64,000 bases of DNA. It comes from an uncultured Candidatus Saccharibacteria bacterium. GTDB lineage: Bacteria; Patescibacteriota; Minisyncoccia; Phycocordibacterales; UBA918. Below are positions 5,336 to 64,000 of the stretch, piece after piece. The position numbers and the translations under genes were made by a program. The stretch is from contig CAYGKO010000004.1 in assembly GCA_964350735.1 (NCBI GenBank), positions 19,583 through 83,582 of the forward strand. Reading direction: 5' to 3'. Within the stretch, counting starts at the first letter, position 1, and each line of letters begins with the position of its first letter. Under the pieces are notes generated by a model. That model was not told the DNA's origin. It made no database searches and saw only the letters and a list, made by a program, of their open reading frames with translations.

Positions 5336-6253
5336 CTAAAATAGCAAATTATCCATTACCGCTTGTCGATCACCAAAGAAAACTTCTTGCGGTAATACTG
5401 TTTTATCTCCTAAGTATATAACAACCTCACTATCTTCGCTGATCTTGGTAGCGATATACCACGGTACTCGCAGCTCAGTATCAGACACCGGTACAAATGG
5501 CATCAACTCACCATCAATTTCGACTTTTCTGAGCTGATTAAACCCTGTGCCAACCACGGTAAGTTGGCCAGGATTTTGAAACCAGAATCCTTCTCGGTGA
5601 GCGGTAATCAGCTCAAACTGTTCACTGCCACCATACTGCCAATCTGCAGCCATGTGCTCAGCGTACCAGACATCTTTTTCAGCTTCGGTAATTGGCCGCA
5701 CCAAGATACTCCCTTCGACCATCTCAGCTACCGCACCGGCTGCTACTGATATACCACTCTCTTCACCACGTATTCGAACCTCCACCACCCCCTCGCCCAC
5801 CACAAACTTCTCTTCCTCATCAGACACATACGTTCCAAAAGACGTCCCTCGCACCGCCGCTACCATGGTTGGAGTGTATACCTCATAGACTTCGTCTTGC
5901 TCGAGGGCGCGCTCGATCCGCGACCACACCTTTCCTGCTGTTACATCTAAAGCTGAAGTTTTCTCAGTATCAGTAAATGTAAGAGTGGTGTTTTCAGCAA
6001 TTGAGCTGATTAGCTGCTCACTACTCTTAATCAGCGCCCGTCCAGTAGCGTCAGTCCCCACCACGTCACCGTCCCCAACAGGAACTTCTCCCGTCACCGA
6101 ATCATTGTTTTTACTCACTATATTCCCAAGCGTCAACAACACAGCTGGTTCATAACGCACCGAATTCTCCAGCACTGTATCCGCATCAGCCACCAACCAG
6201 TAAAACCCCACTCCACTGACCAACACCACAGAGAAACCAAGAAGGTATTTCAT
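5336..6253 (-). CDS. FecR-domain secreted protein, tandem paralog of the neighbouring gene
   Basis: 305 aa. It shares the block KVWSRIERALEQDEVYEVYTPTMVAAVRGTSFG with the neighbouring gene, and about 90 bp are near-identical at nucleotide level (about 4870-4960 versus 5820-5910). Confidence 0.55.
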   Translation of the reverse strand: MKYLLGFSVVLVSGVGFYWLVADADTVLENSVRYEPAVLLTLGNIVSKNNDSVTGEVPVGDGDVVGTDATGRALIKSSEQLISSIAENTTLTFTDTEKTSALDVTAGKVWSRIERALEQDEVYEVYTPTMVAAVRGTSFGTYVSDEEEKFVVGEGVVEVRIRGEESGISVAAGAVAEMVEGSILVRPITEAEKDVWYAEHMAADWQYGGSEQFELITAHREGFWFQNPGQLTVVGTGFNQLRKVEIDGELMPFVPVSDTELRVPWYIATKISEDSEVVIYLGDKTVLPQEVFFGDRQAVMDNLLF

Positions 6254-27682: not shown

Positions 27683-28491
27683 GGCAATTGATATTTCCGT
27701 TCTTGTAATACAATCAAGTTCTCCGCCTCTAACTTCTGCATCTGCTCACAAAGCTTTATTTTTGGGAATGTGGCCAACTTCGCTTGTAACTGAGCTCTCG
27801 TATACGACTTGTCTGCAAGTGCTCTAATGATTGCACCGCGTACTTCCCTGTCACTACCCTTAAATTTTGATTGTTTGCTGTAGCTTTTAGCCTGCTTATT
27901 TAGATTCCCATGCAACTTCTTCAAGTGAGCGCCATAGTCCATTAGTGCCCAGTACCACTCACGCGGTTTTTCTTGATCTAAAGTTAGTTCGATATATCGT
28001 ACTATTTTTGCCTCAGAAACTGCTGACTGTTTACTGAAGAAATGATAGAGATACACCGTCCGAATATTAGTCTCAATGATCGGGACCGGTGTATCGAACG
28101 CAAACGCAAGCACCGCGCCAGCGGTGTAGGGGCCGATCCCTGGTAGTTTCTGTAACTCGTCATAGGTAGCTGGGAAAACACCACCATGTTCATTAACTAT
28201 TTCTCTGGCACACTGATGAAGCATTTTTGCTCGACGATTGTAGCCCAAACCTTGCCAGGCGCGTAGCACATCACCTAAAGAAGCTTTGGCTAATTTCTGA
28301 ACCGTGGGCCATTTCTCTAAAAAAGCTTCATATTTAGGAATCACCCGCTCCACCTGTGTCTGCTGTAACATGATCTCTGAGACCAAGACCTGATACGGAT
28401 CAGTCGTCTGTCGCCACGGCAGACCATGCCGTCCGTTTGTTTCATAAAAATCCCAGACAGTTTTCACCATCTGCTGCTCTTTTAGGGTCAT
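27679..28491 (-). CDS. MutY/EndoIII-like HhH-GPD DNA glycosylase lacking the Fe-S cluster motif
   Basis: 270 aa. The N-terminus matches MutY (LPWRQTTDPYQVLVSEIMLQQTQVERV...WQGLGYNRRAKMLH) and the HhH is LPGIGPYTAGAV. There is no Cx6Cx2Cx5C motif or NUDIX domain, and the catalytic position reads ETN rather than DGN. Confidence 0.65.
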   Translation of the reverse strand: MTLKEQQMVKTVWDFYETNGRHGLPWRQTTDPYQVLVSEIMLQQTQVERVIPKYEAFLEKWPTVQKLAKASLGDVLRAWQGLGYNRRAKMLHQCAREIVNEHGGVFPATYDELQKLPGIGPYTAGAVLAFAFDTPVPIIETNIRTVYLYHFFSKQSAVSEAKIVRYIELTLDQEKPREWYWALMDYGAHLKKLHGNLNKQAKSYSKQSKFKGSDREVRGAIIRALADKSYTRAQLQAKLATFPKIKLCEQMQKLEAENLIVLQERKYQLP

Positions 28492-28750: not shown

Positions 28751-29235
28751 ATACATCAAAAGGAAATGGCTGACTCGATCAGAGATCGTGTCAGCCATCG
28801 ACAGTTGCTATGTCGGATTAGCTAGTTCCGACACCTACGAGCAGTCAACCCGTAGTTCAGCCGTGCTCGGGCCGAATAAAATTAAGTACAGGCTTCTGTT
28901 GCCAGGCGCCTGCGGACCCCGCCTTAAGCTGCGAAGCCTAAGGACTTAAGGCATTACGCCCGACCAACGAGGCCGTGCGCTCCACCCAGATTGGCTGCCA
29001 TCCACGCGGGAACCGCGTCATGACCGCCATCGCTTTTAGCACGAGTGCCATTTGCGAAAAGTGAACCGATAACGGTGGTGTCTCACCGAACAAAAGCTAA
29101 CTCCTTTAGACGTCCGTCGATCCTATTTCGACCCCTGCATCCAAACGTTCGGGTGTTTGGTGGAGCCGCCGGGTACCGCCCCCGGGTCCGATCCGTTTAT
29201 TGCGAGCGCGTTTATTGCCATAGATCCCTAGAGAT
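28751..29235 (-). ncRNA. ssrA: Candidate circularly permuted (two-piece) tmRNA gene (ssrA) with its terminator
   Basis: Read 5'->3' on the minus strand, a T-arm-like CCGGG-GGCGGUA-CCCGG is followed by the acceptor 3' strand CGGCUCC-ACCA (+29158-29166). A 22-nt spacer follows, then GGGGUCG-AAAUA-GGAUCGACGG (+29135 downward), which resembles the tmRNA 5' end. GGGGUCG and CGGCUCC form 7 pairs including G3.U. An ORF-like frame starting GCA AAU lies 81 nt in. A terminator hairpin occupies 28768-28796. Confidence 0.5.
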
Positions 29236-29271
29236 CAGTTTCATCCTAGTATTAAAATAATTGAAAGTCAA
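29236..29271 (-). promoter_or_regulatory. Putative sigma70-like promoter for the tmRNA precursor
   Basis: On the minus strand, TTGACT is followed by a 17-nt spacer and TAGGAT, immediately after the stop of the HAD-hydrolase gene. The predicted start would give an acceptor piece of about 78 nt. Confidence 0.3.
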
Positions 29272-29955
29272 CTAAATATTGTAAATTACGTCTTTTCGCT
29301 CCACTACGACCTCCCAACCTCGTCGCTCTGCCTGCTCGTATAGCTTCTGATTTGGATTAAAACAAATCGCTCGTTCAACACTTTCAAACATTGGAATGTC
29401 ACCGTCAGTATCACCAACAGCAATCGAACCAGCAAAAGACACTGCTTCCCGATCTAGTACGCGCGCCACAATATTGGCCTTATTTTCGATCAAGTGCACA
29501 TCGGTCATTTCACCCGTAAAGCAATCCTGTGGTCCAATCTCATAGATGCGACCATACACTTTATCAAAACCTTGAGTTTTACAAAATTCGTCGAGGATAG
29601 TTTTTGGAGATTGTGAGATTGCTACTACAAAATAACCTTCTCTTTTTAATTCATGAATCAGATCCCGGGTATACCGATACACATGTTTGCTTTGCTCTCC
29701 CACAACCATTCTGCCCAGATCAGCCAATGTTCCGTAATGAACGCCTCTAATATGAGTAACGTAACAGTTAATTACTGCCCGTATGTACGCATCGTAAGTC
29801 CCCTCCCGATTCCGCCACGCATGATAGGCGTCGCTGTATTCAGCTCGTGACTGCTTTGCAAACACCCCCTCAGACACCAGTTTCTCCACCAGTTCAATTA
29901 ATAAACTGGAGCGAAATACTGTGCCGTCTATGTCAAAAAATGCTACCGGTTTCAT
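29272..29955 (-). CDS. HAD-superfamily subfamily IB hydrolase (phosphoserine-phosphatase-like)
   Basis: The start is taken at MKPVAFFDIDGT (HAD motif I). Motif IV is GDTDGD. Length is 227 aa. Confidence 0.7.
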   Translation of the reverse strand: MKPVAFFDIDGTVFRSSLLIELVEKLVSEGVFAKQSRAEYSDAYHAWRNREGTYDAYIRAVINCYVTHIRGVHYGTLADLGRMVVGEQSKHVYRYTRDLIHELKREGYFVVAISQSPKTILDEFCKTQGFDKVYGRIYEIGPQDCFTGEMTDVHLIENKANIVARVLDREAVSFAGSIAVGDTDGDIPMFESVERAICFNPNQKLYEQAERRGWEVVVERKDVIYNI

Positions 29956-59784: not shown

Positions 59785-59980
59785 GGAAGTATGGTACCAC
59801 GCAAATAGGTGGCGAACTTTGCTCGCCGGCCAGCAGGCACCAATAATTTTAATCCTCCGGAAAATCAACCCTGCCAAACCAAAAGCTACCAAAATATATA
59901 CAAAAAAACCTTTCAATCGATTGAAAGGTTTTTTGGAGTCTTCGAGGTTTGGCGGTTTTTGGCTCGCTGCTACAAATCTC

Positions 59981-61904: not shown

Positions 61905-62768
61905 ATGCCCTTTCCCATTCGAGAACTACCAGCTGCGAAGCACTCTCCGCTCTTGCGGGAAATTCCGCAGCCGCCTACTGCACTCAATTATCGTGGTGCC
62001 CTACCTGATCCAGACCTTAAACTTCTCGCCGTCGTCGGTAGTCGCAAATACACCAGCTACGGTAAAGACGCCGTGCAACATCTGATCGGTGGCCTCAAAG
62101 GCTACCCGGTTGGGATTGTCTCTGGCCTGGCGCTCGGGATCGACAGCTTGGCGCACCAGACGGCGCTCGACAATAATCTCTATACCCTCGCCATTCCGGG
62201 CGGTGGGCTCGACGACTCAGTCATCTACCCCGCCACGCACAAACGCCTAGCCCAAAATATTCTCGACGCTGGTGGCGGGCTACTGTCAGAATTCGCCCCT
62301 GACTTTCGTGCTACCAAGTGGTCGTTCACCCAACGCAACCGCCTCGTCTGCGGTATGTGTCACGCCACGCTATTAATAGAAGCCGCCGAGAAATCCGGCA
62401 CCCTCATCACCGCGCGCTTGGCCACTGACTACAATCGAGAAGTACTGGTCGTCCCCGGCAGTATCTTCTCGAAGAATTCTGCCGGCACCCATCAGTTCCT
62501 CAAGCTCGGCGCGACACCCGTCACTGATGCGAGCGACATCCTCGCTGCTTTACAGATCAGTGACGCCGAACCAGTCACTAAGCCTCTCCTGCCTGACCTC
62601 ACCCCTGAAGAAGCACGTGTACTCACCATTCTCCACGAACCCACGCCGCGTGACGAACTCATCCGCCAGCTTGAGCTCCCTACTCCAGAAGCTGCAGCTC
62701 TTTTAATGCAGATGGAAATAAAAGACCTAATAGTAGAGAGCGGAAATAGCTACCGAATCAAAACATAG
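61905..62768 (+). CDS. dprA: DNA processing protein DprA (Smf)
   Basis: 287 aa with the Rossmann-like DprA core (LLAVVGSRKYTSYGKD, GIVSGLALGIDSLAHQTAL, SGTLITARLA) and a C-terminal winged-helix-like region. Confidence 0.85.
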   Translation: MPFPIRELPAAKHSPLLREIPQPPTALNYRGALPDPDLKLLAVVGSRKYTSYGKDAVQHLIGGLKGYPVGIVSGLALGIDSLAHQTALDNNLYTLAIPGGGLDDSVIYPATHKRLAQNILDAGGGLLSEFAPDFRATKWSFTQRNRLVCGMCHATLLIEAAEKSGTLITARLATDYNREVLVVPGSIFSKNSAGTHQFLKLGATPVTDASDILAALQISDAEPVTKPLLPDLTPEEARVLTILHEPTPRDELIRQLELPTPEAAALLMQMEIKDLIVESGNSYRIKT

Positions 62769-62823
62769 TCAACAAAAAACCACATCCAACCAAACAGTGG
62801 TCGCGCATTCATGTCAGTACGTT

Positions 62824-62855
62824 ATAATTTAGTACTGTTAACAGTACTAAATTAT
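62824..62855. promoter_or_regulatory. 32-bp perfect palindrome (putative operator) overlapping the -10 box and start codon of the YerC-like gene
   Basis: The sequence ataatttagtactgttaacagtactaaattat is its own reverse complement. TATAAT lies at 62823-62828 and the ATG at 62854. Confidence 0.5.
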
Positions 62856-63252
62856 GACAAACACCACTCGAAAAAAAATTCACTCCGCTGAATTCAAAAC
62901 TGCGGAGCAGCTCTTGAGTAAGCTAATTAGTGCGAACCAAACGAGCGCACAATACTTTTTAAATGATTTCTTAACTGATGCAGAAAAAATCATGCTGATA
63001 AAACGCTTTGCTTCTGTATGGATGTTTGCAGAAGGATATTCTCAATACGATGTTTGGAATACGTTATTCATTAGCCCAACTACTGCTCAGCGTATCTATC
63101 GGGACTGGAGCAGTGGCCGATACCAGGCCTTTGTAAAAAATACTCAATCAAAAAATCGAGATTCCATCTTGGCACTTATCCAGGACTTCATTACCGCTCA
63201 AGCCGACTCGAAAGCTCGAGCCCGCCTATTGGCACGAGCTATAGGAAATTAG
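62854..63252 (+). CDS. TrpR/YerC/YecD-like helix-turn-helix regulator
   Basis: 132 aa. The region FLTDAEKIMLIKRFASVWMFAEGYSQYDVWNTLFISPTTAQRI resembles the Trp-repressor-like YerC family. Confidence 0.55.
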   Translation: MTNTTRKKIHSAEFKTAEQLLSKLISANQTSAQYFLNDFLTDAEKIMLIKRFASVWMFAEGYSQYDVWNTLFISPTTAQRIYRDWSSGRYQAFVKNTQSKNRDSILALIQDFITAQADSKARARLLARAIGN

Positions 63253-63273
63253 TACTGTTAACAGTACTAATTT
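63246..63273. promoter_or_regulatory. 28-bp perfect palindrome (second copy of the same operator-like site) overlapping the regulator stop codon and the topA -35 region
   Basis: The sequence aaattagtactgttaacagtactaattt shares the core tagtactgttaacagtacta with the upstream copy. TTGACA lies at 63272-63277, 17 bp before a TATTAG-like -10. Confidence 0.5.
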
Positions 63274-63326
63274 GACAAGTTTTTAGTTTCCTAGTATTAG
63301 TGTGTGCTACATTTATAGAAATTCAT

Positions 63327-64000
63327 GGCAAAAACAGCAATCAAAAATACGCTCGTGATCGTAGAGTCACCGGCCAAAGCAAAAACAATCGAAAAATACC
63401 TCGGCCCCGGCTATAAGGTAAAATCTTCGGTTGGTCATGTCCGAGACTTACCTAAAACCAATAAAGACGCCGTCGATATCGACGGCGGCTTTGTGCCGCG
63501 GTATATCGTCTCTCCCGGGAAAGAAGCCGTCATCAAAGATCTCCAGATTGCAGCTGCCAAAGCTGATCAGATCCTACTCGCATCTGACCCCGACCGAGAA
63601 GGCGAAGCGATTGCTTGGCACGTAGCCGAACTGCTAAAAGACGTCAACAAGAACCAAAAACGGATCGTTTTTCATGAAATCACTGAGCCAGCCGTCAAAG
63701 CCGCGATCGAAAAACCCCGCAAGATCAATATGCACCTCAAAGAAGCACAGGAAGCCAGGCGCGTACTCGACCGTCTCGTCGGTTACGATCTCTCTGGCTT
63801 GATCTGGAAAAAAGTCCGTTATGGTCTGTCAGCTGGTCGCGTACAATCTCCAGCCCTGCGTATCATTATGGAGCGAGAACGAGAAATTCGCGCCTTTATC
63901 CCTGATGACTACTTTGTTCTCACAGCACATAGTACTATCAGCAAAGCTGCCGTGCCATTTACCTGTACTGAAGAACCGGGAGAAGAAAAAGAAGCGATGC
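63327..64000 (+). CDS. topA: DNA topoisomerase I, N-terminal part (continues beyond the window)
   Basis: The open frame from the ATG at 63327 runs to the window end. It has the Toprim N-terminus (LVIVESPAKAKTIEKYLG, SVGHVRDLPK, LLASDPDREGEAIAWH). Confidence 0.8.

Follow-up and report, generated by a model that had tools for sequence, protein, structure and literature searches.

Twin perfect palindromes around a TrpR/HisR-like gene of Patescibacteria: a candidate autoregulatory module

TrpR and HisR (PF01371) are small proteins with a helical helix-turn-helix (HTH) fold. The name HisR, a histidine-dependent repressor, has replaced YerC; the operators of both HisR and TrpR are 20-bp palindromes, the TrpR motif being TGTAcTnGTnnACnAgTACA, and about half of the hisR genes have their own site upstream (PMC9413887). 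In this study, we analyzed a gene of this kind, here named gene X, in a stretch of 64,000 nucleotides from an uncultured Candidatus Saccharibacteria bacterium (contig CAYGKO010000004.1, positions 19,583 to 83,582; hereafter the window). The gene encodes a protein of 132 amino acids (aa) and is bracketed by two perfect palindromes that share the 20-bp core TAGTACTGTTAACAGTACTA. The reading that we favor, with modest confidence, is that X is a TrpR/HisR-type dimer which binds both palindromes and represses its own gene through the upstream site, any coupling to the downstream topoisomerase I gene (topA) being incidental.

The locus resembles the TrpR/HisR systems in the small helical HTH fold, in the 20-bp palindromic sites (predicted for X) and in the frequent presence of an own site upstream. 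The TrpR motif and the X core both have a GTnnAC center and a GTACT arm, the arm of the X core lying 1 bp nearer the center. Unlike TrpR and HisR, which are shorter than 110 aa, X has about 130 aa, two extra C-terminal helices and an MTN(I/V)SK N-terminus; its sites show perfect symmetry, often over 28-46 bp, and lie on either side of the gene, and no regulon for the biosynthesis or transport of amino acids is apparent. The operator pairs lac O1/O2, gal OE/OI and lambda OL/OR are similar in that identical operators, two or more of them, are separated by a few hundred bp, one at the promoter and one downstream, whereas the X pair encloses exactly its own open reading frame (ORF) across the whole family and shows no evident helical phasing. 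Another comparison is offered by the REPIN/RAYT systems, in which the RAYT gene, present once and inherited vertically, has lineage-specific palindromes on both sides (PMC3116915, PMC3337134, bioRxiv 10.1101/2022.05.22.493013). Gene X is likewise single-copy and vertically inherited, with lineage-specific palindromes on its flanks and further copies elsewhere in the genome.

The Patescibacteria (candidate phyla radiation, CPR) have tiny genomes with very few recognizable regulators, and almost nothing is known of their gene control. In the searchable literature, including that on Patescibacteria or Saccharibacteria together with palindromes, no description of the X-palindrome module was found. 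The X family and its predicted sites would provide about 50 natural co-varying protein-operator pairs for the study of HTH specificity.

Gene X and its twin palindromes

Gene X lies at 62854..63252 on the + strand, as assigned from the ORF list, a profile search and a predicted structure, and is present as a single copy in the window. Palindrome 1 (ATAATTTAGTACTGTTAACAGTACTAAATTAT, 62824..62855) is perfect over 32 bp, with its core at 62830-62849. It begins one base into a -10-like TATAAT hexamer, which was found by direct sequence reading and abuts its left arm (62823..62828, + strand), and it ends within the X ATG (62854-62856), so that it forms a putative operator over the -10 element, the transcription start site (TSS) and the start codon. 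Palindrome 2 (AAATTAGTACTGTTAACAGTACTAATTT, 63246..63273) is perfect over 28 bp, with its core at 63250-63269. It includes the TAG stop of X (63250-63252), overlaps by 2 nt a TTGACA hexamer ahead of topA (63272-63277), and is a putative second operator and/or a 3' hairpin or roadblock of the X unit. A preliminary description of this DNA had reported both palindromes and their shared core around a regulator gene, the first over TATAAT and ATG and the second over the stop and the TTGACA of topA; direct reading and the coordinates confirmed these observations. With a tolerance of up to 3 mismatches, the 64-kb window still contains exactly two matches to the core, and none turned up in 100 shuffles. 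For the 24-mer, no other site in the window comes closer than 8 mismatches, a distance that chance alone would give. In our own perfect-palindrome scan, the arms measure 16 (site 1) and 14 (site 2), and one other palindrome in the window reaches arm 16.

Related loci (L numbers) were collected by exact-protein look-ups and by a metagenome scan with 11 closer sequences, which returned 60 loci, and the 130 nt before the ATG were compared with the 130 nt after the stop for a shared 20-mer with at most 3 mismatches. Such a 20-mer was present on both sides of X in 49 of the 54 complete non-redundant loci, identical in most of them, against 0 of 37 when a region 1 kb downstream served as control. 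The arms vary among lineages, and the two copies within one locus agree. Thus, the core reads TAGTACT-GTTAAC-AGTACTA in the window, TAGTACA-GTTAAC-TGTACTA in L004, TATGTCT-GTTAAC-AGACATA in L005, TACTCCA-GTTAAC-TGGAGTA in L006, TAGTTCG-ATATAT-CGAACTA in L020, TAGTGCG-ATGCAT-CGCACTA in L023, CGCGATTAATCGCG in L032 and GTAGCGGTTAACCGCTAC in L084, and a further arm type is TACCT-GTTAAC. The longest perfect palindrome among the relatives has 46 bp (L017). A clade that was scored as palindrome-less by the strict finder carries the same imperfectly symmetric motif on both X flanks. The 20-bp core is identical in the window and L076 and nearly so in L001, their X proteins being 46-56% identical and their flanks unalignable. 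That the core was kept despite diverged X proteins and unalignable spacers is the signature of a selected site co-evolving with its protein. Judged from these sequence comparisons, the twin palindromes are not due to chance and belong with X, with which they co-vary in about 50 lineages. The gene context of X is stable across independent samples.

In some lineages (L058, L066, L034, L041 and L063), arrays of palindromes surround X. L058 has three upstream copies, with spacings of 81 and 84 bp, plus one downstream, and L034 has one upstream and four downstream copies, the latter occupying the whole spacer up to the next gene. This next gene is a 513-aa ORF, probably CTP synthase, a label that comes from Pfam matches over the loci as a whole. 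In L001 and L076, a third copy stands just after the dprA stop.

Two Logan contigs that come from the organism of the window end (L096:2920-2949) or start (L003:1-31) exactly within palindrome 1. The short-read assembly breaks here because de Bruijn assemblies fail at perfect palindromes whose length is close to that of the k-mer; therefore, such sites are often at the contig ends of metagenome-assembled genomes (MAGs), and dispersed copies are probably under-counted. Loci with palindromes of this kind are systematically fragmented in MAGs.

The relatives of the X protein were sought by a word-indexed protein search, which gave 2, and by an exhaustive HMMER search, which gave 301 cluster representatives at E <=1e-3. 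The family thus holds at least 301 cluster representatives, nearly all of 126-145 aa, and is marked by the N-terminal MTN(I/V)SK, by LLTExExIMLxKR and by the HTH motif G.S.Y.V...L..S.ST..R. Within the recognition helix, the positions S/T-T-A/V-x-R/K (residues about 75-81) vary together with the palindrome. PF01371 is matched by 29 of 38 aligned relatives at E <=0.01 (best 8.2e-11), and some relatives carry the JGI name YerC. The AlphaFold2 model of X (pLDDT 86.2, pTM 0.74) has eight helices, of which helices 7-8 (residues 102-131) are the two that TrpR and HisR do not have. The top 10 Foldseek matches in the PDB include the YerC/HisR-like entries 3frw, 3g1c and 3kor (target-normalised TM 0.66-0.74, probability 0.98-1.0), followed by the E. 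coli TrpR entries 1trr and 1tro; the Foldseek E-values are weak (0.07 and above). According to the model, X has a TrpR-like all-helical HTH fold. The family is an uncharacterised branch, about 130 aa in length, of the TrpR/HisR(YerC) superfamily in Patescibacteria-type genomes, and the TrpR/YerC-like label given earlier holds for it. Searches of X against Pfam, NCBIfam and PHROGs gave no transposase match, and no HUH, DDE or recombinase domain was detected. No trp or his genes were found beside X or beside any palindrome copy, the neighbors being dprA, topA, recJ, rnhA, aminoacyl-tRNA synthetase genes and others. In L001:6001-6435 (P0002), the database call of 144 aa begins 15 codons early; the MTNV... 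start of the family is at 6046, right after the upstream palindrome.

Two further origins of X were considered and rejected. For a phage or defence origin, nothing significant was found in PHROGs, and the neighbors are housekeeping genes. For a restriction-modification C protein with its C-box, neither the window nor any of about 55 relatives has a restriction or methylase gene next to X.

The upstream copy ends between -2 and +30 nt relative to the X ATG in the related loci. A -10-like hexamer (TATACT, TATAGT, TAGTAT and TAAAAT among them) that ends 4-9 nt, mostly 6, before the X start is present in 35 of 55 loci, against 14% at random positions. From this short distance, the mRNAs of X are probably leaderless, and the palindrome would cover the -35 and spacer region. 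A second design occurs in the window, L006, L084 and L090, where (TGn)TATAAT abuts the left arm and the palindrome would span the TSS (in the window near 62835, about 7 nt after TATAAT) and a short leader. In both designs, the palindrome lies on the promoter or start, which fits autorepression, and a bound protein would block RNA polymerase. No good -35 accompanies TATAAT 62823-62828 in the window.

In the mechanism that we propose, X would encode a dimeric HTH protein of the TrpR/HisR(YerC) superfamily, for which the two palindromes would be the own cognate sites. The upstream site would cover the core promoter, the TSS and the start codon of X, and abundant X would block RNA polymerase there, resulting in negative autoregulation. 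The downstream site, which is fixed to the X stop codon, would probably be a second operator that acts by cooperative binding or by looping over about 420 bp, and it might also shield the X unit from neighboring transcription, either as a roadblock of bound protein or as a 3' hairpin. The regulator model of the preliminary description thus stands insofar as the palindromes belong with the HTH gene and the upstream copy lies on its own promoter and start; the dedicated role in topA control does not.

Several results weigh against autoregulation of this type. The window X itself scores 19.2 bits (E = 0.0013) against the Pfam Trp_repressor profile, below the gathering cut-off of 27 bits. The sigma-70 consensus scan called a promoter at neither palindrome; it made no call for the TTGACA-N14-TAGTAT of topA either. 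The center-to-center spacing of the palindromes ranges over 416-590 bp among the loci with no evident helical phase, so that looping with helical phasing was dropped as unsupported. Perfect symmetry of up to 46 bp exceeds a 20-bp HTH footprint, and its outer parts differ between the two copies. Finally, 10 exact copies lie away from X in three MAGs, 4 of them inside housekeeping ORFs, unlike ordinary regulon operators.

The downstream copy and the neighboring genes

The downstream copy starts between -9 and +81 nt from the X stop, mostly between -9 and +17, and often includes the stop. It is kept where the next gene is convergent (L011, L032, L037, L043, L046, L058, L061, L063 and L066). The gene downstream of X, taken over 50 loci, is topA in 10, fructose-bisphosphate (FBP) aldolase and RNase H in 4 each, a class-II aminoacyl-tRNA synthetase in 3, and SecA, CTP synthase and Nramp in 2 each, with others making up the remainder. 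On the upstream side (47 loci), DprA occurs in 7, an M50 protease in 6, RecJ in 4, L7/L12 in 3 and GroEL in 2, besides others. As far as sequence comparison goes, the twin-site arrangement belongs to X, as a self-contained module whatever the neighbors are.

In the window, X stands between dprA (DNA-processing protein A; 61905..62768, + strand; from the ORF list, with an identical L096 protein that has PF02481 and PF17782) and the 5' part of topA (63325..64000, + strand), which begins with the ATG at 63325 and runs off the window; in L003, where topA is complete, its domains are Toprim, Topoisom_bac and Zn_ribbon_Top1. A promoter-like element precedes topA (63272..63297, + strand), composed of TTGACA at 63272-63277, 14 nt and TAGTAT at 63292-63297. 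It was recognized by alignment of 8 loci (the window, L001, L004, L005, L009, L013, L070 and L076), and in 8 loci, the X-less locus of the MAG H41-bin057_1 among them, both hexamers and their spacing are invariant. A spacer of 14 nt would be unusually short, should TAGTAT be the -10 element. TAGTAT-N6-ATG recurs ahead of X in L023, L029 and L041.

The preliminary description had proposed that X is a dedicated regulator of topoisomerase I, in which case palindrome 2 would exist to occlude the topA -35. The 2-nt overlap with TTGACA in the window speaks for it, and so do the conserved dprA-X-topA order in the clade nearest the window and the rank of topA as the commonest downstream neighbor. This order is confined to the GTTAAC clade (L001, L004, L005, L013 and L076), and 40 of the 50 loci keep the twin palindromes with other downstream genes, many of them convergent; conservation of palindrome plus gene upstream of topA, a check that had been suggested, thus holds for the nearest clade and fails for these 40 loci. 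Moreover, palindrome 2 is locked to the X stop, and its distance to the topA element varies from 0 in the window to about 25 bp in L005 and L009, 38 in L004, 48 in L001, about 70 in L076 and about 110 bp in L013, so that in the topA-linked relatives it stands 25 to about 110 bp upstream of an invariant TTGACA-N14-TAGTAT. In H41-bin057_1, the promoter-like element is retained, with one solo palindrome and no X between dprA and topA. Since the distance varies and the element survives the loss of X, the -35 overlap in the window is a local accident of spacing. A dedicated topA regulator is therefore an attractive inference but probably a wrong one, and we regard it as improbable. In the window, about 47 bp separate the center of palindrome 2 from the likely topA start downstream (about 63307), and occupancy by X may influence topA in this genome as an incidental side effect.

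The neighbors also bear on the idea that X is a site-specific protein of chromosome architecture or replication (parS/ParB-, matS/MatP- or Ter/RTP-like), with few sites per chromosome and two of them beside its own gene. The rtp and tus genes adjoin their own sites and are autoregulated by them. The small number of identical sites in a genome, some of them within genes, resembles a parS or Ter set; DNA-metabolism genes (dprA, topA, recJ, rnhA, comEC, fpg and uvrD) are frequent neighbors, and parB lies 4 kb downstream. Against this, the GC skew is negative throughout the window and does not switch at X, and no DnaA box occurs within 6 kb of X there, by which a replication origin or terminus at X was rejected for the window. 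Perfect symmetry would give no polarity for fork arrest, the intragenic sites look recent and are not conserved in position (that in rsmI is found in one MAG only), and there is no partner NTPase. We regard this explanation as very improbable. A dif/Xer site or an integron attC was also rejected, as there are no partner genes, at least two copies per locus and fully symmetric centers. In L019, L022 and L028, the upstream X motif is immediately preceded on its 5' side by a consensus or near-consensus DnaA box (TTATCCACA or CTATCCACA), 25-35 nt ahead of the X start.

The symmetry itself might suggest that the palindromes are only RNA or DNA hairpins, intrinsic terminators or mRNA-end stabilizers, which would insulate the X transcript with no involvement of the X protein. 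The predicted RNA folds of palindromes 1 and 2 reach -21 and -15 kcal/mol, respectively, and the symmetry is longer than any plausible protein footprint. Many downstream copies among the relatives have A-run/T-run flanks, such as AAAATAGTACAGTTAACTGTACTATTTT in L004 and AAAACCTTACG...CGTAAGGTTTT in L061, and likewise in L011 and L020. In several relatives, the downstream palindrome has a GC-richer outer part that pairs with the final codons of X and is missing from the upstream copy. In L017, the outer symmetric parts are TAC...GTA upstream and AGAGTCCT...AGGACTCT downstream, the latter pairing with the 3' coding end of X in the arrangement AGAGTCCTC|TAA|...GAGGACTCT. Because the outer symmetry pairs with the coding end, the symmetry itself is maintained, not only the recognition by X; it could come from a terminator or roadblock role of the downstream copy, from hairpin formation or from arm-to-arm homogenization.

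A hairpin role is not the whole story, because the copies of one locus match, the genomes differ and the window copies have no U-runs. Hairpins acting alone give no reason for two terminators that are identical within genomes and wholly different between them. The stems in the window are A+T-rich with the tails AAAUUAUGAC and AAUUUGACAAG, without an adjacent U-run, and the consensus terminator scan made no call at 62824-62855 or 63246-63273, so that plain terminators were rejected. In the MAG D2.bin.5, the polarity is reversed (T5 before, A5 after). Furthermore, the upstream copy lies over the -10, the TSS or the ATG and would thus often not be fully transcribed, and some copies exist within ORFs. 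Hairpins without a bound protein are hence very improbable as the full explanation. No RNA family was found at the X locus by an Rfam gathering search.

Two other palindromes were noticed in the window. The second with arm 16 (AAAAAACCTTTCAATCGATTGAAAGGTTTTTT, 59903-59934) is perfect over 32 bp and located just downstream of serS (- strand); with its A6/T6 flanks and -13.9 kcal/mol, it resembles a bidirectional terminator of the common type and has no relation to the palindromes of X. The other (CGCCGTCGATATCGACGGCG, 63468-63487), perfect over 20 bp, is positioned in the topA coding sequence (..AVDIDGG..) and is called by the terminator scan on the - strand; it is probably due to chance or coding, since shuffles reach arm 12.

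Copies of the palindrome away from gene X

The exact 18-mer AGTACTGTTAACAGTACT was scanned in 185,579 species, one genome each, and was found at 17 loci. Six of these are single matches in unrelated taxa, where about 9 would be expected by chance according to our own estimate. The remaining 11 loci comprise 12 sites in just 3 Patescibacteria MAGs, of which 2 flank X (in D2.bin.5) and 10 are those away from X. H41-bin057_1 has 6 copies, most of the form TAT-core-ATA, in the dprA/topA spacer, in truB, in murD, in leuS, upstream of def and in the pfkB-cutA spacer. The Minisyncoccia MAG D2.bin.5 has 4 copies, all TTTTT-core-AAAAA, two flanking X, one after greA and one after rpoC. The Saccharibacteria MAG SRP093185 (the assembly of L002) has 2 copies, one in rsmI and one 43 nt upstream of pnp. 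The intragenic copies (truB, murD, leuS and rsmI) are in frame and all read STVNST, and they coincide with 5-6 extra residues when compared with an orthologue (rsmI) or with solved homologues (LeuRS and MurD). The rsmI gene has the palindrome in one MAG and is without it in another. The same flanks within a genome, the non-orthologous positions and the solo site point to occasional copying of the palindrome and to possible recombination between the flanking pair.

These copies raise the question of whether the palindrome is a low-copy mobile or copy-homogenized element, with X as its vertically inherited single-copy partner, similar to REPIN/RAYT with an HTH protein in place of the HUH transposase. 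New copies would be seeded elsewhere, also in frame in genes, and the flanking pair could recombine and delete the X cassette. The 10 sites away from X, the extra residues at the STVNST copies and the RAYT-like standing of X, single-copy, vertically inherited and bracketed by lineage-specific palindromes, agree with such an element. However, X is not an HUH/Y1 (IS200/IS605-like) transposase and has no detected catalytic domain, its fold being all-helical and TrpR-like. The palindromes number 2-6 extra per MAG and 0 in the window, single digits against the tens to hundreds of extragenic copies of the REPINs; they are perfect, lack the REP doublet structure and are in some cases inside ORFs. No extra copies were found in the window and 6.7 kb beyond it (roughly 10% of the source genome), in the flanks of related loci or, for two other lineages, in stretches of 20 kb. 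The gene context of X does not change between samples, the palindrome copies show no evident target-site duplication, and the solo site in H41-bin057_1 is explicable by slippage between direct repeats of 24-28 bp. Taken together, an element of this type is unlikely.

A Patescibacteria-wide form of this partnership would hold that the palindrome is actively copied or homogenized, lands in frame in truB, murD, leuS and rsmI, and can excise X and leave a solo copy, a REPIN/RAYT-like replicator without an HUH transposase. We hold it to be unlikely. If true, the long symmetry, the extra copies in essential genes and the solo-site scar would mark a new kind of low-copy genomic replicator. The dispersed repeat that had been offered earlier as an alternative to an operator is thus absent from the window and the 6.7 kb beyond, and present in three related MAGs as 10 extra exact copies, a handful and not dozens.

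Another likeness is to the Rickettsia palindromic elements, which are about 100-150 bp long. The copies of the X type in the relatives are similar in that they are in frame in truB, murD, leuS and rsmI and encode a short hydrophilic peptide in variable regions. Unlike the Rickettsia elements, the X element has 18-28 bp, is of very low copy number and has the gene of its cognate protein attached, and none is found in the window genes.

A few observations were made beside these copies. The site 27985-28004 of the window (TAGTTCGATATATCGTACTA), in a 270-aa ORF on the - strand, differs at 1 position from the core found on both sides of X in the L020 and L024 lineages and shares the outer TAGT...ACTA with the window palindromes. 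The ORF, which from its sequence we take to be a MutY/EndoIII-like glycosylase, presumably has no insertion there, judging by the E. coli enzyme. About 0.03 such matches are expected by chance, and near-matches to the cores of other lineages (this site and L079:4102) were tentatively judged to be chance. In the leuS of H41-bin057_1 (L080:5745-7997), an insertion of about 160 aa with a NUDIX domain (residues 395-512) separates the editing domain from the remainder of the catalytic body. Elsewhere in the window, at 28885-29275 (- strand), ARAGORN reported no transfer-messenger RNA (tmRNA), and Rfam identified a full-length permuted (two-piece) tmRNA, with 223.9 bits for alpha_tmRNA and 107.8 bits for tmRNA_permuted.

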